A model generated the notes under the pieces. It ran no database searches. It saw nothing but the letters and a program-made list of their open reading frames with translations, and was not told where the DNA came from. A stretch of 64,000 nt of DNA from Escherichia coli 042 (GTDB lineage Bacteria > Pseudomonadota > Gammaproteobacteria > Enterobacterales > Enterobacteriaceae): assembly GCF_000027125.1 (NCBI RefSeq), contig NC_017626.1; one strand, 5' to 3'. Positions 10,918 to 50,615 of the stretch are shown one piece after another. The first letter of the stretch is position 1. Each line of letters opens with the position of its first letter. Position numbers and translations under genes: made by a program.

Positions 10918-11020
10918 ATGCCGGATGCGGCGTGAACGCCTTATCCTGCCTACAAAGTCGTGCAAATTCAACATATTGCAGTTTATTGGTAGGCCTGATA
11001 AGCGCAGCGCATCAGGCAAT
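10918..11020. repeat. REP/BIME cluster: two inverted REP units
   Basis: Sequences gccggatgcggcgtgaacgccttatcctgcctaca and taggcctgataagcgcagcgcatcaggc match the E. coli REP consensus. Confidence 0.65.
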
Positions 11021-11199: not shown

Positions 11200-12129
11200 T
11201 TACTCCCCTTCACCCGGGAACAGGAACGGGTTGATGGAACTGCGGGCGTAGCCTTCTTGCTCCATTCGCGCATCCAGTACCAGAGAGGCGAGGTCATCTG
11301 CTACGGCTTCGATTTTTGGATCTTTTTCCTGATAAAGAATCTTCAGGTAAGTGCCGCAGTCATCGCAGCTTTCGGCTTTAATCGCGGCCTGTTCGTCATC
11401 CAGCGACCAGTAATGCAGTTTGCCGCTCTGCTCGCAGTTGCTGCATTTTACGCGCACTACGTGCCATTCGGTTTCACACAGGTTGCAGTGCAGGTAACGC
11501 AGCCCCTGAGTGGTGCCAATTTGCACCATGCTGGACACCGGCATAGAGCCACATACCGGGCAATATTGACGTTGTTCGCCGTATTCAGCGCGGGCTTTGC
11601 CGGGGATCAGATTAGCCATCTGCGCCCAGTAGAGCGACAGCGCAGCCCAGATAAACGGCGCTTTATCGCTGCTGACGGACGAGAAATCAGAGGCAAACAG
11701 TGCGCTGGCCATATCTTCCAGCTCCTGGGTCGATGCCTTCTCCAGATTCTCAATCACTGCCAGCGCCGGGCCGCTCATTTCAGGTTTCAGCTCAGCAATC
11801 AGCGCCATCAACAGTTTTTGCCAGTGCTTATCACGCGGCAGAACGTGAATATCCAGCGGGGGCTTACCTTGTGCGCTGGCTTCTTTAATGCGCGCAGTCA
11901 GATCCATCTCCAGCGGATGGTCGTACAGCACCACTTCCTGGGCGTGGGCGATAAGCGCAGCAAAGCGCAGGTAATCACCCAGCGGATTATTTTCTGCCAG
12001 CTCGCGCAGACGCTCGGCGCGGCGGTTGTATAAATTCTTGAGCCGAGGGAACAATAACGGCGGAATCATATCCGCCGTACGTTTCTCGCTCGAACCCAGC
12101 TCATCTTGCGGGATTATGCGAATACTCAT
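11200..12129 (-). CDS. fdhE: Formate dehydrogenase accessory protein FdhE
   Basis: 309-aa product with paired CxxC motifs; conserved position downstream of fdoI. Confidence 0.95.
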
Positions 12130-12761
12130 TCAGCTTTCTTTTCCGTTGTCTTGCGGACCTCACGGTACCAGCGCGGGTGATGTTTCTTCGCCCAGGCGCT
12201 GGTAACCCATCCTTCCACCATGGCGGTAATCGTGCCTTTTACCCAAAGGGCGGCGTAGATATGCACCATGATAACCACAATTAGCGCCACTGCGGCAAAT
12301 GAATGCAGCATTAACGCGAATCGGATCACCGGGATTGAGAAAGCAGGCGCAAAATAAGGACGCCAGATAATCACGCCGCTCACCAGCAGCAGAACCAGGA
12401 AAATAATCGCCGCCCAGAAAACGCATTTCTGACCGAAGTTATAACGCCCGGTGTCACCTACTTCCTCGTTGACGACGATCTTACGAATATTCTTCGCCCA
12501 AAAGATATCATCCCGATTGATTAGGTTGTGATGCCAGTAACGGAAAAACATGATGATGAACGAGGCAAACATAACCACGCCGACAAACGGGTGCAGAATT
12601 CGCGCCAGCTGCGGTGTGCCCATGATTTGCATCAACCAGTTGAAGGACGGAAACAAAAAGCCAAGCCCGCTCACCGCCGCCAGGATGAAGCAGAAGGCGG
12701 TGATCCAGTGGTTGATACGTTCCGGCGCGGTGTAGCGCACTATGGTGTCACGTCGTTTCAT
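12126..12761 (-). CDS. fdoI: Formate dehydrogenase-O cytochrome b556 subunit
   Basis: 211-aa membrane protein; 4-nt overlap with fdhE. Confidence 0.95.
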
Positions 12762-13660
12762 TTGCGCTCCTCGTCTTTCTCTTCGTGCAGATTATTCTCT
12801 TCCTCATCCGCACGGTTCGGACCGACACCCACGTAGTGGAAGATACTGGCTGCGAAGGTAGCCGCAAAGCCAACGGCTGCGAGCGGTTTCCAGATGCCTT
12901 TCCAGAATTTCACGGTTTCGCTGATTTCCGGGTTCTCCGGCAAGCCATGATACAGATTTGGCTTGTCAGCATGGTGCAGCACGTACATGACGTGTGTACC
13001 ACCAACGCCTGCCGGATCGTACAGACCCGCATTGTCGTAACCGCGGGTTTTCAGCTCAGCAACGCGCTCGCTCGCCAGCGTTTTCATCGACTCTTTCGTA
13101 CCGAAGTGAATCGCGCCCGTTGGGCAGGTCTTCACGCAGGCTGGTTCTTGCCCAACCACCACGCGGTCAACGCACAGCGTACATTTGTAGACGCGGTTGT
13201 CTTCCGGGTTGAGGCGCGGAATGTCGAACGGACAGCCCGCAATGCAATAACCGCAGCCAATGCACTGCTCGGACTGGAAGTCGACGATACCGTTGGCATA
13301 CTGAATAATTGCACCTTCCGCCGGGCACGCTTTCAGGCAGCCTGGATCGGAACAGTGCATACAGCCGTCTTTGCGGATCAGCCATTCCAGTTTGTCGTTC
13401 TGCTCCACTTCCGAGAAGCGCATTACCGTCCACGATTTGGCGCTTAAATCATTGGGGTTGTCGTACACCCCAATGTTATTGCCGACGGTATCGCGAATGT
13501 CGTTCCACTCTGAACACGCCACCTGACAGGCTTTACAGCCGATACAGGTGGTGACGTCGATGAGTTTCGCCACTTCTTCCTGGAAGTCCCGCGCCTGAGG
13601 CGCGGGGGTCAGACCGTTAGTCGCGGAACGACGAATGATATCTTGAGATTGATAAGCCAT
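12758..13660 (-). CDS. fdoH: Formate dehydrogenase-O iron-sulfur subunit
   Basis: 300-aa product with multiple CxxCxxCxxxCP ferredoxin motifs. Confidence 0.95.
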
Positions 13661-13672
13661 ATGTCGTCTCCG

Positions 13673-16600
13673 TTACACCTTTTCCACATTCACAAGGAAG
13701 GACTTAAACTCCGGCGTCTGCGTGTTCGCATCACCAACGAAAGGCGTTAACGTATTGGCAATAAAGCCTTTTTTAGCTACGCCTTCATAGCCCCAGTGAA
13801 TCGGAATACCGATGGTATCGATATCTTTGCCGTTCGCTTTCAGCGTGCGAATACGTTTGGTCACCACCGCTTTGGCTTTGATATAGCCACGGTTGGAGGA
13901 GACTTTCACGGTATCGCCCTGGGCAATGCCAAGTTTATTCGCCAGCGACTCCCCGATTTCCACAAACTGCTCTGGTTGCAAAATCGCGTTCAACAGCGCG
14001 TGTTTGGTCCAGTAGTGGAAGTGCTCGGTCAGACGATAGGTGGTTCCGACATACGGGAACTTATCGGCTTTACCCAACGCTTCGGCGTCGTCTTTAAAGA
14101 TACGCGCAGCCGGGTTCGAGATAACGTTTGGATGCAGCGGGTTAGTTCCCAGCGGCGTTTCAAACGGCTCGTAGTGTTCCGGGAACGGACCTTCCGCCAT
14201 CTTATCAAGGGCAAACAGACGTCCCATGCCTTCCTGCTGCATGATAAACGGCCCTACGCCGCTGCCCGGAGGCGCTGCGCTGTAGTCCGGAATATCCCAG
14301 CCGGTCCACTTAGTGCCGTCCCATTTCAGCAACTGACGCTTCGGATCCCACGGGTTACCCTGCGGATCTGCGGAGGCGCGGTTATACAGGATGCGGCGAT
14401 TAAGCGGCCATGCCCATGCCCAGCCCAGCGTGTTACCGAGGCCAGACGGATCGGCGTTATCACGGCGTGCCATCTGGTTACCTTCTGGCGTCCAGCTACC
14501 GGCGAAAATCCAGCAGCCACAGGAGGTGGTACCGTCATCGCGCAGTTGGGCGAACGAGCTAAGTTGTTGGCCTTTCTTGACGATAACCGCACCGGTTGCC
14601 GGATCGGTAATATCGGCCAGCGCCTTACCGTTGCTCTCCATCGCTACTTCTTCCGACTTCGGCTCATGCGGGATAGCGTAGTTCCAGGTCATGTTCAGCA
14701 CCTGGTCCGGGTTCGCGCCACCCTGTTCGGCATACATCTTGCGCAAGCGCAGGAAGATACCGGAGAGGATCTCGCCATCAGTCAGCGCAATCCCCGGGGC
14801 GTCCGCACCTTTCCAGTGCCACTGCAACCAGCGACCGGAGTTAACGATTGAACCGTTCTCTTCCGCGAAGCAGGTCGATGGCAGACGGAACACTTCGGTC
14901 TGGATCTTCGACGAGTCAACTTCGTTCAGCTCACCGTGGTTCTGCCAGAAGTTAGAGGTTTCAGTGTTCAGCGGGTCGATGGTGACGAGGAACTTCAGTT
15001 TCGACAGACAACCGATCACTTTGTTTTTGTTCGGGAATGAGGCAACAGGGTTAAAGCCCTGGCAGATATAGCCATTGACCTTGCCTTCTTTCATCATCTC
15101 GAAGTATTGCAGGACGTCGTAGCCTTTATCCCACTTCGGCAACCAGTCAAAGCCCCAGCTATTTTCCGCCGTCGCTTTATCACCAAAGAAGGCCTTCATC
15201 ATAGAGACGAAGAATTTCGGGTAGTTGCCCCAGTAGTTTACCTGGCCTTCCAGCAGCGGTTTTGGCGTGTTGGCGGTAAGGTAGGTTTGCAGATCGGTCT
15301 GCTTCTCGCTCGGCAGCGTCATGTAACCCGGCAGGCTCTGCGACAGCAGCCCCAGGTCCGTCAGCCCCTGAATATTGGAGTGACCGCGCAGGGCGTTAAC
15401 GCCGCCGCCTGCCATCCCCATATTGCCGAGCAGCAGCTGGATCATCGCCATCGTACGAATGTTTTGCGCACCAACAGAGTGTTGCGTCCAGCCGAGGGCA
15501 TACAGGAACGAGGCAGTTTTATCGTGAGCACTGGTTTCGGCGATGTATTCGCAGACTTTCAGGAACGCGTCTTTTGGCGTACCACAGATGTTTTCAACCA
15601 CATCTGGCGTGTAGCGGGAAACGTGCTGTTTCAGCAAGTTCCACACGCAGCGCGGATGTTGCAGCGTGGTATCGCGTTTGGCGAAGCCGTTTTCGTCCAG
15701 TTCGTAAGTCCAGGAGGATTTATCGTACTTGCGTTTTTCCGCGTCATAGCCGGTGAACAGGCCATCTTCAAAGCCGTAATCCTCACGCACGATCAGGCTG
15801 GCGTTGGTATAGGCTTCGGTGTATTCGCGGTTGAATTTTTCATTGTTCAGCAGGTACAGCAATACGCCTGACAGGAAAGCAATGTCAGTACCGGAACGAA
15901 TAGGGGCATAGTAGTCAGCCACCGCCGCCGTACGCGTAAAGCGAGGATCGATCACAATCAGCTTCGCGCCATTGTGAATTTTGGCTTCCATCGCCCAGCG
16001 GAATCCGACCGGGTGAGCTTCAGCGGCGTTACCGCCCATCACCACGACGAGGTTGGCGTTCTTGATGTCGACCCAGTGGTTGGTCATCGCACCGCGACCA
16101 AATGTTGGAGCAAGACTTGCTACCGTTGGTCCGTGTCAGACACGCGCCTGGTTGTCGACCGCGAGCATACCCAGCGCGCGGGAGAATTTTTGCGTTAAAT
16201 AGCCGGTTTCGTTACTCGACGCGGAAGCACACAGCATCCCGGTGGAGAGCCAGCGGTTAACGGTCACGCCTTCGGCGTTTTGCGCAATGTAGTTAGCATC
16301 GCGGTCTTCTTTCATCAGTTTGGCGATGCGATCAAACGCCTCTTCCCAACTGATTTGCTGCCATTTATCAGAACCTGGCGCACGGTATTCCGGAAACTTC
16401 AGACGGCTTTCGGAGTGGATGAAATCCACCAGGCCAGCGCCTTTCGGACAAAGTGCACCGCGGTTGACCGGGTGATCCGGATCGCCTTCGATATGGAAGA
16501 TAGATGCTTTGGCGTTTTTTGCTCCGTCACCGAGGCTGTACATCAACAGCCCACAGCCTACGGAACAATAGGTGCAGGTATTACGGGTTTCGCGGGTGCG

Positions 16601-16723
16601 CAGCAGTTTATACTGCCGGGTTTCCGCGAGCGCTACGCTGGGGGCAAAACCCAGTGCCGCTGCCGTGGTGCCTGCCATACCGCCAGCGCAGATCTTAAAG
16701 AACTGCCTTCTGCTGACCTGCAT
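13673..16723 (-). CDS. fdoG: Formate dehydrogenase-O catalytic subunit, selenoprotein with an in-frame TGA (Sec) at 16136-16138
   Basis: Track ORFs 16136..16723 (Tat signal MQVSRRQFFK, ending ...DNQARV) and 13673..16087 are in the same frame and separated only by TGA; the sequence continues HGPTVASLAPTFGRGAMTNHW... as expected for Sec196 of molybdopterin formate dehydrogenases. Confidence 0.9.
16090..16135 (-). promoter_or_regulatory. Candidate SECIS element directing selenocysteine insertion in fdoG
   Basis: Lies immediately 3' of the in-frame UGA on the mRNA and contains the palindromic segment agcaagtcttgct; position matches bacterial SECIS placement. Confidence 0.55.
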
Positions 16724-16916
16724 GGATTGCTCCTTGTTTCGACATTGTCACGTCCCATTTACATTCGCTTGCTGCGTGTGCAGGGAGTGGGAGTTATTTT
16801 TCTTTGCGGAAGGGGCCGCAAAGGTCCAGAATTGGCTCAATTTCCCTCCATCCAGGAAGGGTTTGTAACAGAATACCATAATGTTGGTGTGTGTGTTCTT
16901 ATCTGGTTAAGAGAAA

Positions 16917-17750
16917 GTGAAAAAAACACAGCAAAAAGAAATCGAAAATGTGACAAATGTCACAGGTGTTCGTCAAGTTGAGTTATGGCGGCGTGATGAT
17001 TTACAACACCCACGGTTAGATGAGGTGGCGGAAGAGGTTCCCGTTGCGCTGGTCTACAACGGCATTTCGCATGTAGTGATGATGGCGTCACCCAAAGACC
17101 TTGAGTACTTTGCGCTCGGTTTTTCGCTTTCCGAGGGGATTATCGAAAGTCCACGCGATATCTTCGGTATGGATGTCGTTCCTTCCTGTAATGGTCTGGA
17201 AGTGCAAATTGAGCTTTCCAGCCGCCGCTTTATGGGGTTGAAGGAGCGTCGCCGGGCACTGGCGGGACGTACGGGATGTGGCGTGTGCGGCGTGGAGCAA
17301 CTTAATGACATCGGAAAACCGGTGCAGCCGCTACCGTTCACCCAGACGTTTGATCTCAACAAACTGGATGATGCATTACGTCATCTCAATGATTTCCAGC
17401 CAGTGGGGCAACTGACCGGTTGTACTCACGCCGCCGCCTGGATGTTGCCATCTGGCGAACTGGTCGGCGGGCATGAAGACGTGGGTCGCCATGTGGCGCT
17501 GGACAAACTGTTAGGCCGCCGGTCACAAGAAGGGGAAAGCTGGCAGCAAGGTGCGGTACTGGTTTCCAGTCGTGCCAGTTATGAAATGGTGCAAAAGTCG
17601 GCGATGTGCGGCGTAGAGATTTTGTTTGCGGTGTCTGCCGCGACCACGCTTGCTGTAGAAGTGGCTGAACGCTGTAATTTGACGCTGGTGGGCTTTTGTA
17701 AACCGGGTCGGGCAACGGTTTATACCCATCCGCAGCGTTTGAGCAATTAA
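16917..17750 (+). CDS. fdhD: Formate dehydrogenase sulfurtransferase/accessory protein FdhD
   Basis: 277-aa product; divergent from fdoG. Confidence 0.95.
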
Positions 17751-17758
17751 TTAAAATA

Positions 17759-17795
17759 AGTCCTGCGATATATATTAAATTGCAGGACTTATTCA
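17759..17795 (+). terminator. Hairpin downstream of fdhD
   Basis: agtcctgc ... gcaggact inverted repeat followed by a T-rich stretch. Confidence 0.5.
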
Positions 17796-17799
17796 TTTC

Positions 17800-18461
17800 G
17801 TGAATTTTATTATTTTATTTATAAACAAAACGCGTGTAGTGGCGTTAACGCCTGCGCTGCAACCTATTGATGGCGTGGCGGTGAGTTATATTGATGCTGC
17901 CGTGGCGTTGGGTAATACCATTAACGAAATGGATAAATATTACACCCAGGAAAATTATAAAGACGATGCGTTTGCGAAAGGGAAAACGCTGCACCAGACA
18001 TTCTTAAAAATCTTGAAGCCTTTGAACCTGTAGCAGAATCTTATCATGCGGCGATTCAGGAAATTAACGATAAGCGCCAGCTTGCGGAATTGAAAAATAT
18101 TGAAGAAAGAGAAGGGGAAACATTCCACTACTACTCTCTGGCAGTCATGATTTCAGCGAAACAAATTAATAACCTGATATCGCAAAATAAGTTTGATACA
18201 GAAGCGGCAATGAAGAAAGTGTCTGAACTGGAAACGCTGGTGGCGCAAGCCAAAGAAGCGGATAAAAGCGGCATGAATTTCTCGTTTATTAATTCGGCAG
18301 GCCAGTATCAACTCGAGGCTAAAAAATACGTTCGCCGCATCAGAGATAAAGTCCTGTACTCTGACTGGGATAAAGAGCAACTTCAGGACGCAAACTCAAT
18401 CTGGATGGCCGAAGACTCATTTCCCGAGAGCATTATGCGAGTACAACGAAATGGTCGATGA
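17800..18461 (+). pseudogene. yiiG-like gene remnant, frameshifted and apparently N-terminally truncated
   Basis: Two consecutive ORFs (17800..18033, 18090..18461) in different frames read as one protein if a single indel near 17990-18005 is corrected. No signal peptide is present and the ORF starts right after the fdhD terminator. Resemblance to YiiG is recalled only at low confidence. Confidence 0.45.
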
Positions 18462-18881
18462 AATATTTCAGTCAATTGTAATCGCGGGGCGGGTTTGTGA
18501 TGAGCGCGGATATGTCACGAAGTCGTGACAATATAAAGCAGAGTGAAGGATAAATTTTGTGAATAAAGTATCATTATTTAATGATTTTGTGAATGTTTAA
18601 ATGTCTCAGATAATTTGTTTAAGCGTTATTTATATTTGTGGCTTATGAGTCAGCGTGAATCATATCTAATATTTTTTACGATATTTAGTTAAAAACGGCA
18701 CTATTGTTATATTCCTCACGTTCCAGGAAATCAGCGGATTTACTCATATTATATGGCGGGATACTATCCATCGGCCTGCTGAAGTTGGATTAAAAATTCG
18801 AAAGTGCACACCTTATATTTCTCTATATACGTATTCCTTTTGGAAAGCGTAGGGTCTCTTTTATTTCAGGGAACGTAAATA

Positions 18882-20276
18882 ATGAAAAAATCGACATTAT
18901 CTTTAGCCATCGGTTTATTATTGGCATGTAGTACCGGATTGGCAAAAACACAGCATTTAACGCTGGAACAACGCATGGCATTGCTGGAAGAACGCCTGGA
19001 AGCGGCAGAAATGCGGGCAGCAAAAGCAGAGAGCCAGGTTAAACAGCTGCAGACACAACAAGCCGCTGAGATCCGCGAAATTAAGGCTGCCCAGGGCAAT
19101 ACGCCGGTAAATGGACAGGCAACGGCGGAATCTGCAAAGAAAAATTCCACCTCACCTAATCTTTTGCTCTCAGGTTATGGCGATTTAAAAATCTACGGCG
19201 ACGTAGAATTTAATATGGATGCGGAAAGTAATCATGGCCTGCTGGCAATGACCAACGCTGATGTGAATAGCGATCCCACTAATGAACAGTGGAATCTCAA
19301 TGGTCGTATTCTGTTAGGTTTTGATGGTATGCGAAAACTGGATAATGGTTATTTCGCCGGGTTCTCCGCACAACCGCTGGGGGACATGCACGGTTCAGTA
19401 AATATCGATGATGCGGTATTCTTCTTTGGCAAAGAAAACGACTGGAAGGTCAAAGTAGGCCGTTTTGAAGCCTACGATATGTTCCCGCTGAATCAGGATA
19501 CCTTTGTTGAACATTCCGGTAATACTGCGAACGATCTTTATGACGATGGCAGCGGTTATATCTATATGATGAAAGAGGGCCGCGGGCGCTCTAACGCTGG
19601 CGGTAATTTCCTCGTCAGCAAACAACTTGATAACTGGTATTTTGAATTAAACACGTTACTTGAAGACGGAACATCTTTATATAATGACGGTAATTATCAT
19701 GGACGCGATATGGAGCAGCAGAAAAATGTTGCTTATCTGCGTCCAGTAATTGCCTGGTCGCCGACGGAAGAATTCACCGTTTCCGCAGCGATGGAAGCGA
19801 ACGTAGTAAATAATGCTTATGGTTATACCGATAGCAAGGGTAATTTTGTCGATCAGTCCGATCGTACCGGCTATGGTATGAGCATGACCTGGAATGGCCT
19901 GAAAACGGATCCGGAAAATGGCGTCGTGGTTAATCTTAATACCGCCTATTTAGATGCTAATAATGAGAAAGATTTCACTGCCGGGATTAACGCGCTGTGG
20001 AAACGTTTCGAGCTGGGTTATATCTACGCGCACAATAAGATTGATGAATTCAGCGGTGTAGTTTGTGATAACGACTGCTGGATTGATGATGAAGGGACGT
20101 ACACCATTCACACCATTCATGCGTCTTATCAGTTCGCTAATGTGATGGATATGGAGAACTTTAATATTTACCTCGGGACGTATTACTCCATTCTGGATAG
20201 CGACGGTGATAAAAAACACGGTGATGATACTGATGACCGTTACGGGGCACGCGTTCGCTTTAAATACTTCTTCTGA
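18882..20276 (+). CDS. Putative outer-membrane carbohydrate porin (LamB/ScrY-like) with N-terminal coiled coil
   Basis: 464-aa product: signal peptide MKKSTLSLAIGLLLACSTGLA, a roughly 50-aa Glu/Ala/Gln-rich heptad region, then Gly/Tyr/Asn-rich sequence with alternating hydrophobicity and a C-terminal Phe typical of beta-barrel proteins. Preceded by an AT-rich 420-bp region. Confidence 0.5.
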   Translation: MKKSTLSLAIGLLLACSTGLAKTQHLTLEQRMALLEERLEAAEMRAAKAESQVKQLQTQQAAEIREIKAAQGNTPVNGQATAESAKKNSTSPNLLLSGYGDLKIYGDVEFNMDAESNHGLLAMTNADVNSDPTNEQWNLNGRILLGFDGMRKLDNGYFAGFSAQPLGDMHGSVNIDDAVFFFGKENDWKVKVGRFEAYDMFPLNQDTFVEHSGNTANDLYDDGSGYIYMMKEGRGRSNAGGNFLVSKQLDNWYFELNTLLEDGTSLYNDGNYHGRDMEQQKNVAYLRPVIAWSPTEEFTVSAAMEANVVNNAYGYTDSKGNFVDQSDRTGYGMSMTWNGLKTDPENGVVVNLNTAYLDANNEKDFTAGINALWKRFELGYIYAHNKIDEFSGVVCDNDCWIDDEGTYTIHTIHASYQFANVMDMENFNIYLGTYYSILDSDGDKKHGDDTDDRYGARVRFKYFF

Positions 20277-20316
20277 TGAAGGCGCGGTGCTGGATATTTT
20301 CCGGCACCGCAACTCA

Positions 20317-20631
20317 TTAAGGCAGGTAAAACACTTCTTGCAGCTCGCTACTGACTGGGCTGTTATCCGGGTTAGCTGGCATAACGTCGGTCATATATTT
20401 CCACCAACGTTGGCAAACATCAGTACTGGCTACCGCATTCCACCGTTCTTCAGATTCAATCTCTACCGTGGCAAACAGCAGATTACGCGCTTTGTCGAGG
20501 TAAATGGCGTAGTTATGCGCACCGTGAGATTTCAACACTGCTTCCAGTTCCGGCCAGATTGGATTATGCCGACGCTGATACTCTTCGTGGGCGTCGGGGT
20601 TAACCTGCATGACAAAGGCTTTGCGGATCAT
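20317..20631 (-). CDS. rhaM: L-rhamnose mutarotase
   Basis: 104-aa product recognised as RhaM (YiiL). Confidence 0.9.
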
Positions 20632-20640
20632 GTTTGCTCC

Positions 20641-21465
20641 TTACAGCGCCAGCGCACTGGCGAGTGGTGTAACGCCGAAACGCTGGCCGAGCGCTATCAG
20701 CTCTTCACGGCTGATGGTCTGTTTCATGCCGCCCATCGAATAAACCTTCACTAATACTTGTGCTGATTTTTCTGCGGTGTCGATTAAACCGAATGTTTCA
20801 TCCAGTGTCGGACCGCTGCCGAAGACGCCGTGGAAGGGCCACAACACCAGCGAATGTTTTTGCATTTCCTGTGCGGTCGCCTGGCCGATTTCGTCGGTGC
20901 CGGGCACCATCCACGGCAGAATGCCAACGCCATCCGGGAACACTACCAGACACTCAGTGCTGCCTTCCCACAGTTGGCGAGTGAAGACCGCGGTGTCGTT
21001 TTCCAGTACGTAGGTAAGGGCGATCAGGTTGGTGGCATGGCAGTGCATGATCACCCGATCTTTACCGTTGGTGGCTTTAATGCGTTCGCAATGAGAGAGG
21101 AAGTGCGCCGGAAGTTCAGAGGTTGGAACGGCTTCGTGAGTTAGCCCCCAGAGAATATGGTAGCCCGCGCCGTCGCTGTCGACTTTTACGACGCCTAAGT
21201 TAGCCGCAGGATCAAGCTGGACGTTGCGGAAGAATTTGCCGGAGCCGGTGACAATAAACGGTGTATTTGCCAGTAAAGGCATGGGCTGGCTGAGCGGGAT
21301 ATAGCGCGGTTGTTGGTGGAAGTTGTCGTGATACGGTGCGATATCGGCGTCATCCAGGCGCAGTGTCAGGTTACCACCATTGCGCTCGTCCCAGCCTTTC
21401 AGCCAGGCGTCGGTGGTGGCTTTGATCATTCCCTGGACAAACCAGGACTGGGTAATGTTTTGCAT
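20641..21465 (-). CDS. rhaD: Rhamnulose-1-phosphate aldolase
   Basis: Internal ATG gives the 274-aa product [16 protein letters not shown]...; class II aldolase. Confidence 0.9.
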
Positions 21466-36825: not shown

Positions 36826-36932
36826 AAAAGGCCTGATGCGCTTCGCTTATCAGGCCTACATGAATTCTGTAATCTATTGAATTTGCAAACTTTTATAGGT
36901 CGGATAAGGCGTTTGTGCCGCATCCGGCATGG
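36826..36932. repeat. REP/BIME cluster between pfkA and sbp
   Basis: ggcctgatgcgcttcgcttatcaggcctaca and taggtcggataaggcgtttgtgccgcatccggca REP units. Confidence 0.6.
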
Positions 36933-50016: not shown

Positions 50017-50547
50017 TTACGCTTTGTAGCTTAATTCTTCGATGGTGTGGAAATGGTTGGTATAGATGCAAATGTCGCCTGCAATATCCAACGCCTTTTC
50101 AGCAATTTCACGGGCGCTAAGTTCAGTGTTTTCTAACAGCGCGCGCGCCGCAGCCTGGGCGTAAGGGCCGCCGGAGCCGATAGCAATAAGATCGTTTTCT
50201 GGCTGCACCACGTCACCGTTACCGGTGATGATAAGCGATGCAGTTTCATCCGCGACTGCCAGCAGTGCTTCAAGTTTGCGCAGCATGCGATCGGTACGCC
50301 AGTCTTTTGCCAGCTCAACGGCGGCTTTGACCAGATGGCCCTGATGCATTTCCAGTTTGCGTTCAAACAGTTCGAACAGCGTAAAAGCATCCGCAGTACC
50401 GCCCGCAAAGCCCGCGATGACTTTGTCGTTGTACAGACGGCGGACCTTTTTCACGTTGCCTTTCATTACGGTATTGCCCAACGTGGCCTGACCATCACCA
50501 GCGATGACCACATGGCCGTTACGGCGTACGCTTACTATAGTTGTCAC
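50017..50547 (-). CDS. hslV: ATP-dependent protease peptidase subunit HslV
   Basis: 176-aa product [20 protein letters not shown]... Confidence 0.97.
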
Positions 50548-50615
50548 GAGCTGACCCCTTGGTTACGAATACAGAGTACAAACCCCGTACAAAAGTACGG
50601 GGCATAATGCAATTA

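Follow-up and report, generated by a model that had tools for sequence, protein, structure and literature searches.

An open-reading-frame lister, applied to the 64,000-nucleotide stretch of Escherichia coli 042 DNA analyzed here (the window), reports on the reverse strand one ORF at 16136..16723, 195 aa long and ending at a TGA, and another at 13673..16087, 804 aa long. The question raised by this locus is whether these are the remnants of a gene broken by a nonsense mutation or the two halves of one intact gene, in which the TGA between them is decoded as an amino acid. An earlier note on this DNA, made from the letters alone, had taken the latter position, naming the gene fdoG and its TGA a selenocysteine codon.

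One reading frame across an internal TGA

Translation in one frame runs without interruption from 16723 to 13673 (reverse strand) through 1017 codons including the terminal TAA, with the TGA at codon 196 as the sole internal stop. The two ORFs thus lie in a single frame and are split only by the TGA at 16136-16138, as the earlier note had stated, and its view of the gene as intact and not a pseudogene also holds, no other stop or frameshift being present in the gene. The start of the second ORF at 16087, the first ATG, is due only to the listing convention of the ORF lister. The coding features of the locus are:

13673..16723, reverse strand: fdoG, CDS of the formate dehydrogenase-O alpha subunit, 1016 codons followed by TAA, codon 196 specifying the predicted selenocysteine (Sec)
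16136..16138, reverse strand: UGA, the predicted selenocysteine codon, fdoG codon 196, in one alignment column with 1KQF_A X196 and the X of 1H0H and of 6SDR
16625..16723, reverse strand: presumed N-terminal twin-arginine (Tat) signal region, MQVSRRQFFKICAGG...VALA, with the S-R-R-x-F-F-K motif (SRRQFFK) in the fdoG translation
12758..13660, reverse strand: fdoH, beta iron-sulfur subunit (TIGR01582, 478.7 bits against a cut-off of 334.7; synteny with K-12)
12126..12761, reverse strand: fdoI, gamma cytochrome b556 subunit (NF007924, FdoI type, 453.3 bits against a cut-off of 341; FdnI model, 243.6 bits)
11200..12129, reverse strand: fdhE, formate dehydrogenase accessory protein (NF002925, 604.5 bits)
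16917..17750, forward strand: fdhD, formate dehydrogenase maturation sulfurtransferase (TIGR00129, 340 bits), divergent from fdoG, as in K-12

The two halves of the fdoG product cover positions 1-194 and 196-1009 of TIGR01553 (the NCBIfam model of the formate dehydrogenase alpha subunit) back to back, with scores of 271.4 and 1278 bits against a cut-off of 814.2; this equivalog model is matched over its full length, and the one profile position missing between the halves falls exactly at the TGA. The gene was assigned to fdoG, and not to its paralogue fdnG, on the basis of gene order and of its 98.6% nucleotide identity to K-12 fdoG (b3894), from which it differs at 43 of 3051 nt and in a single amino acid (K689S). 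Its nucleotide identity to K-12 fdnG is 74.8%. The locus order, fdhD facing away from fdoG-fdoH-fdoI-fdhE, is the fdo arrangement of K-12 and not that of fdn, a different locus in which fdnGHI adjoins yddG and yddM, and the gamma subunit is likewise scored higher by the FdoI than by the FdnI model (453 vs 244 bits), so that the name given in the earlier note stands. Expression of the two operons also differs, fdn being nitrate-induced and anaerobic, and fdo being expressed at a low level, also aerobically (PMC6239281).

The K-12 gene (b3894, NP_418330.1) has the same length of 3051 nt, the same neighbors, and the same TGA at codon 196, and its RefSeq CDS is a single 3051-nt feature running across the TGA. 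The 43 substitutions that separate the two genes are synonymous, apart from five clustered at gene nt 2064-2070 that together give K689S; none lies within gene nt 463-719, and over the 63 nt surrounding the UGA the two genes do not differ. Among complete E. coli genomes, 5425 of 5426 carry the gene. Its N-terminus is presumably a Tat signal, as we take from established knowledge of FdnG and FdoG, and a Pfam search with the 33-aa N-terminal peptide alone matched no Tat-signal model.

The peptide context of the TGA (...LAVDNQARV*HGPTVASLAPTFGRGAMTNHW...) had been interpreted in the earlier note as the selenocysteine active-site context of formate dehydrogenases, and structural comparison bears this out. 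The closest solved relative of FdoG is the FdnG structure 1KQF (1903 bits, with the TGA residue entered as X), and in a residue-by-residue alignment the TGA column coincides with the non-standard residue X196 of this chain, as well as with the corresponding X in 1H0H and 6SDR, both deposited under the name of selenocysteine-containing formate dehydrogenases. The predicted Sec-containing peptide of FdoG would accordingly read ...NQARV-U-HGPTVASLAPTFGR. All three formate dehydrogenases of E. coli, FdhF, FdnGHI, and FdoGHI, coordinate bis-MGD via selenocysteine (PMC6239281). The Sec codon and SECIS of fdoG are an already known feature of E. coli, and FdoG is one of its three classical selenoproteins.

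The hairpin 3' of the UGA

At the UGA and immediately downstream of it, the reverse strand contains three nested RNA features:

16083..16141, reverse strand: match to the whole of the Rfam model RF01989, SECIS_3 (positions 1-59 of 59), with E = 1.8e-19 and 84.3 bits, the gathering score being 63
16093..16135, reverse strand: SECIS hairpin composed of lower stem, internal loop, and upper stem-loop, with minimum-energy and centroid folds in agreement (-12.7 kcal/mol) and the consensus structure of the Rfam model applicable
16107..16124, reverse strand: upper stem-loop, the presumed SelB-binding minihelix GGUAGCAAGUCUUGCUCC, starting 11 nt after the UGA (nt 15 counted from the U of UGA)

The SECIS_3 match is the top RNA match in the window and lies well outside what chance would produce (E = 1.4e-18 over the whole 64 kb and both strands). 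The hairpin, running from 16135 to 16093, starts directly after the UGA, and its presence in both folds at -12.7 kcal/mol provides the stable structure 3' of the UGA that the earlier note had proposed as a SECIS candidate; together with the SECIS_3 score and the covariation across phyla described below, it substantiates that proposal. The interval 16090-16138 given in the earlier note does cover the codon and the hairpin, the conserved block being slightly larger (16071-16141). The palindrome on which the proposal had been based, agcaagtcttgct, is present at 16121-16109 (reverse strand), but its placement needs correction, since it does not follow the UGA immediately: it begins 14 nt further on, inside the minihelix at 16124-16107, and makes up only the apical part of the structure.

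The minihelix contains, counted from the U of UGA, a bulged U17 at 16122 and the loop bases G23 at 16116 and U24 at 16115. The determinants of SelB binding in the fdhF SECIS are U17, G23, U24, and the 11-nt spacing (review, PMC8659212), and the positions of these three bases and the spacing in fdoG agree with those in that review. The likeness to fdhF, one of the two comparisons suggested in the earlier note, extends to the CACGG following the UGA, the GG/CC clamp, the bulged U17, and the loop G23-U24-C25-U26, all at the same distances and with the same 11-nt spacing. The apical stems differ, being AGCA(A)/(U)UGCU in fdhF versus UGCA/UGCA in fdoG, as do the lower stems, and the fdhF loop can be read as having 3 or 5 nt versus 4 in fdoG. 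The fdoG element is not a member of SECIS_2, the fdhF-type family, which was rejected at 28.1 bits against a cut-off of 70.

The other comparison, with fdnG, gave identity. The 63 nt starting 3 nt upstream of the UGA are the same in K-12 fdoG and K-12 fdnG, and the SECIS of E. coli fdnG is identical to that of the window fdoG over 71 nt (-3 to +67), whereas outside this block the identity is 74.8%. Experiments on the fdnG hairpin have been published, and by virtue of the block identity they apply base for base to fdoG.

Thermodynamic stability was of little use in recognizing the element. Relative to shuffled sequences, the fold z-score is -0.65 for a 62-nt context and about -2.1 for both the 43-nt hairpin and the 18-nt minihelix, and the experimentally validated fdhF SECIS scores z = +0.38 in the same shuffle test; stability z-scores therefore do not discriminate and were dropped as a SECIS criterion. 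In the lower stem, the SECIS_3 pairs 8-48 and 12-44 correspond to A-C and A-G in the enteric sequence, and a bulged-G register pairs better. Elsewhere in the gene, the Rfam FdoG-1 5'UTR thermometer was not called (32 bits against 50), the match falling for the most part on the Shine-Dalgarno sequence and the opening codons.

Covariation across phyla and a conserved block in Enterobacterales

For the comparative analysis, one genome per species was searched for a DNA pattern that encodes Q-A-R-V-UGA-H-G-P, which yielded 120 loci from Gamma-, Beta-, and Alphaproteobacteria, Acidobacteria, Actinomycetota, and Desulfovibrionia. The TGA is kept in 120 of the 120 fetched loci, a count to be read with the fact that the search pattern itself required it. 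The loci were aligned over 59 nt from -3, gaplessly, giving 80 distinct rows.

Across these 80 rows, pairing is intact in 95.5% of the cells of the upper SECIS helix, with changes on both sides in four of its seven pairs: pair 21-33 occurs as GC (58), AU (10), and CG (5), pair 24-30 as AU (43), CG (29), and GC (4), pair 22-32 as GC (66) and UG (10), and pair 18-35 as GC (75) and UA (3). The observed covariation was reached by 0 of 500 shuffles, and sliding the partners by 1-3 columns lowered the pairing from about 90% to 28-49% or 27-58% in two runs. RNAalifold recovered five apical pairs and a mixed lower stem from the same rows and omitted the GG/CC clamp; the lower helix is paired to about 85% across taxa in each of two registers.

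Columns 21, 24, 30, and 33 are all third-codon positions, and among the 24 rows with exactly the peptide of the window, pairs 21-33 and 24-30 are paired in all 24, with three pair types each. These pairs covary at synonymous sites under an identical peptide, and hence their covariation is not a product of protein selection. Column 27, corresponding to U24, is T in 80 of 80 rows despite being a wobble position, the codon always being AGT, GGT, or GCT; column 20 shows no variation either, and column 26 is conserved to 90% or more. In some lineages the peptide itself changes, VASLAP becoming VSSLGP, and the helix is kept in the form of U-G and C-G pairs. The comparative data thus offer a clean illustration of RNA structure overriding codon choice.

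Within the Enterobacterales, conservation takes a more rigid form:

16071..16141, reverse strand: 71-nt nucleotide-frozen block, codons -1 to +21 relative to Sec, defined by identity between fdoG and fdnG and among enteric loci

This block, from -3 to +67, is the longest identical run between the window fdoG and K-12 fdnG. In 24 enteric-type loci, selected by protein identity of the flanks and not by the core, synonymous codons are identical in 23-24 of 24 loci at 18 of the 19 degenerate codons in the block, the ACA at +11 being identical in 21 of 23; the frozen codons include the rare GGA, AGT, CTT, GTA, and ACA. The edges are sharp, codon -2 being identical in only 13 of 24 loci and codon +22 in 8 of 24. 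In the 20 of these Enterobacterales loci whose 59-nt core equals that of the window, both paralogues being represented, the identity extends to the whole 71-nt block, the run always reaching +67, and the codon identity of their flanks is 0.49-0.68. Within the species, 5432 of 5433 E. coli records carry the block at 99% identity or more, in a median of two places per genome.

In both fdoG and fdnG, the frozen block continues for about 20 nt after the hairpin has ended (from 16093 to 16071), and at its other edge it takes in the third base of the Val codon preceding the UGA. It is conceivable, though in our estimation rather doubtful, that the functional element in enteric bacteria is larger than the textbook SECIS with its hairpin of 40 nt, with a real additional constraint at the RNA level past the hairpin. 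Such a larger element could possibly be a basal helix enclosing the UGA through GUGUC/GGUGC pairing. In two versions of this extended helix, the columns are pairable in 46-100% of rows with no compensatory change, and almost all of them are invariant coding positions. The 3' flank could also possibly matter for contact with SelB or the ribosome, or for refolding between successive ribosomes. Alternatively, the 3' extension may need no more explanation than codon preference (GGT, GCG, ACC, AAC, CAC) within a highly conserved peptide.

Decoding of the UGA and competing explanations

Direct observations comprise the reading frame, its homology, the placement of the UGA, the hairpin with its covariation, and the extreme conservation at synonymous sites. 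We assign a probability of about 97% to the reading that fdoG is an intact gene whose UGA at codon 196 is decoded as selenocysteine by way of a SelB-dependent SECIS, and none of the data speak against it.

That the gene is instead a pseudogene, with the two ORFs as the remnants left by a nonsense mutation, would fit the output of the ORF lister, which reports two ORFs mechanically; we consider this next to impossible, in view of the same TGA being present in K-12 fdoG, fdnG, and fdhF, the near-universal occurrence of the gene in complete E. coli genomes (5425 of 5426), the single amino-acid difference from K-12 over 1016 codons, and the location of the TGA at the Sec position of solved structures, followed by a SECIS above the Rfam threshold. 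A sequencing error as the source of the TGA was also considered and rejected. Low-level misreading of UGA does occur in E. coli, and the codon could in principle be read by near-cognate tRNATrp or tRNACys in the absence of SECIS and SelB, the hairpin being incidental. An incidental hairpin would, however, hardly covary at synonymous sites or keep its loop U, a wobble base, unchanged in 80 of 80 rows, and the fdoG positions agree with the SelB determinants; misreading of the fdhF UGA is, moreover, low without selenium (PMC4513850). Such read-through is therefore scarcely credible as the explanation.

A different objection concerns the frozen block, whose identity between fdoG and fdnG might reflect recent gene conversion between the paralogues and not selection on an RNA element. 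A perfect run of 71 nt between genes that are 74.8% identical has the appearance that conversion tracts can have. The identical run, however, recurs with unchanged limits (-3 to +67) in loci of both paralogues from Photorhabdus, Providencia, Yersinia, Klebsiella, Citrobacter, Enterobacter, and E. albertii, the flanking synonymous codons of these enteric loci are only 0.49-0.68 identical, and outside the enteric bacteria the sequence of the block changes by compensatory substitutions. Conversion may have contributed to the block identity, and is not its main cause; as a replacement for selection on the RNA it appears very improbable.

Returning to selenocysteine insertion, the mRNA 3' of the fdoG UGA would fold into the bacterial SECIS hairpin (16135-16093), the apical minihelix of which (16124-16107) would present the bulged U17 and the loop bases G23 and U24. 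By analogy with fdhF and fdnG, SelB carrying GTP and Sec-tRNASec would bind this minihelix (PMC8124441, PMC8659212, PMC4513850), and once the lower stem has been opened by the ribosome, with the UGA in the A site, the tethered SelB complex would deliver Sec. Should the delivery fail, RF2 would be expected, again as in fdhF and fdnG, to terminate translation, releasing a 195-residue FdoG fragment; for fdhF, recoding has been measured at 30-40% in vivo (PMC4513850). SelB binding, Sec insertion, and competition with RF2 are thus likely at fdoG from what is established for its two relatives. In the protein, Sec196 would ligate the molybdenum of the bis-MGD cofactor, and FdoG, after export by the Tat pathway, would serve as the catalytic subunit of formate dehydrogenase-O, a membrane-bound enzyme that faces the periplasm. 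A search of all 64 kb of the window found no tRNA gene, and neither the sel genes nor tRNASec are part of it. In K-12, selA, selB, selC, and selD are located elsewhere on the chromosome.

The fdoG case brings no new insight into recoding. For annotation, the locus should be entered as one fdoG CDS with a selenocysteine exception at 16138-16136, and neither as two ORFs nor as a pseudogene. As regards naming, the RefSeq label 'fdnG' is frequent even for genes at the fdo locus.

Conservation around the fdoG SECIS hairpin

In the 24 enteric-type loci, which were selected by the protein identity of the flanks and comprise both fdoG and its paralogue fdnG, the synonymous sites remain frozen for about 20 nt past the SECIS hairpin on its 3′ side (window 16071–16092, minus strand), and this conserved flank stops abruptly at codon +22 relative to the selenocysteine codon. 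The freezing may be caused either by an extended structure or by codon bias. Among 5433 E. coli records, NZ_CP061758.1 is the only one in which the 71-nt SECIS block, spanning codons −1 to +21, carries a mismatch even in its best copy (98.6% identity; 4634717–4634787 of that record), and the block is found there at one place instead of two; one of the formate dehydrogenase paralogues may thus be missing or altered in this strain.

Start region, divergence and naming of fdoG

The region around the fdoG start (window 16694–16892, minus strand) gives a match to Rfam RF02778, the FdoG-1 5′ UTR thermometer, that lies below threshold (32 bits versus a gathering score of 50), being well aligned over the Shine–Dalgarno sequence, start codon, and first fdoG codons and poorly further upstream. 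Of the 43 nucleotide differences from the K-12 fdoG, five are clustered at nt 2064–2070 of the gene (window 14654–14660, minus strand), producing the only amino-acid change, K689S, whereas those outside the cluster are solely synonymous. In most RefSeq E. coli records, as in NZ_CP139196.1 (5178–8228 of the fetched locus), the NCBI pipeline labels the alpha subunit of the fdo locus as “fdnG: formate dehydrogenase-N subunit alpha”, while the adjacent fdoH and fdoI carry their correct names. This label is a naming artefact that could mislead annotation performed without synteny.

The yiiG–rhaM region and other Rfam matches

Located between yiiG and rhaM is the following gene:
18882–20276, plus strand, RafY-type carbohydrate porin of 464 aa (Pfam Porin_8, 514 bits)

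In K-12, this site is occupied by the frvABXR operon. The DUF3829 gene yiiG, a single 351-aa gene in K-12, appears to be broken in the window (17800–18461, plus strand): one ORF of 77 aa covers profile positions 64–124, and another of 123 aa, separate from the first, covers positions 151–271. Among the complete genomes of E. coli (5426), 1166 contain a match to at least 80% of the stretch 17751–21000 in one place, the best-matching records being annotated with carbohydrate porin, YiiG, rhaD, and rhaM.

Four further Rfam matches exceed their thresholds:
10954–10996, plus strand, ES036 (CssrF) sRNA (45.8 bits; threshold 37.6)
36852–36893, minus strand, ES036 (CssrF) sRNA (37.9 bits; threshold 37.6)
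50545–50602, minus strand, ClpQY (hslVU) promoter element
55214–55266, plus strand, L31 (rpmE) ribosomal-protein leader

The ClpQY and L31 matches are consistent with colinearity of the window with K-12 at about 4.07 to 4.13 Mb. Both ES036 matches, the first of which lies directly downstream of fdhE, barely exceed the threshold and may represent repeats or terminator-like elements.
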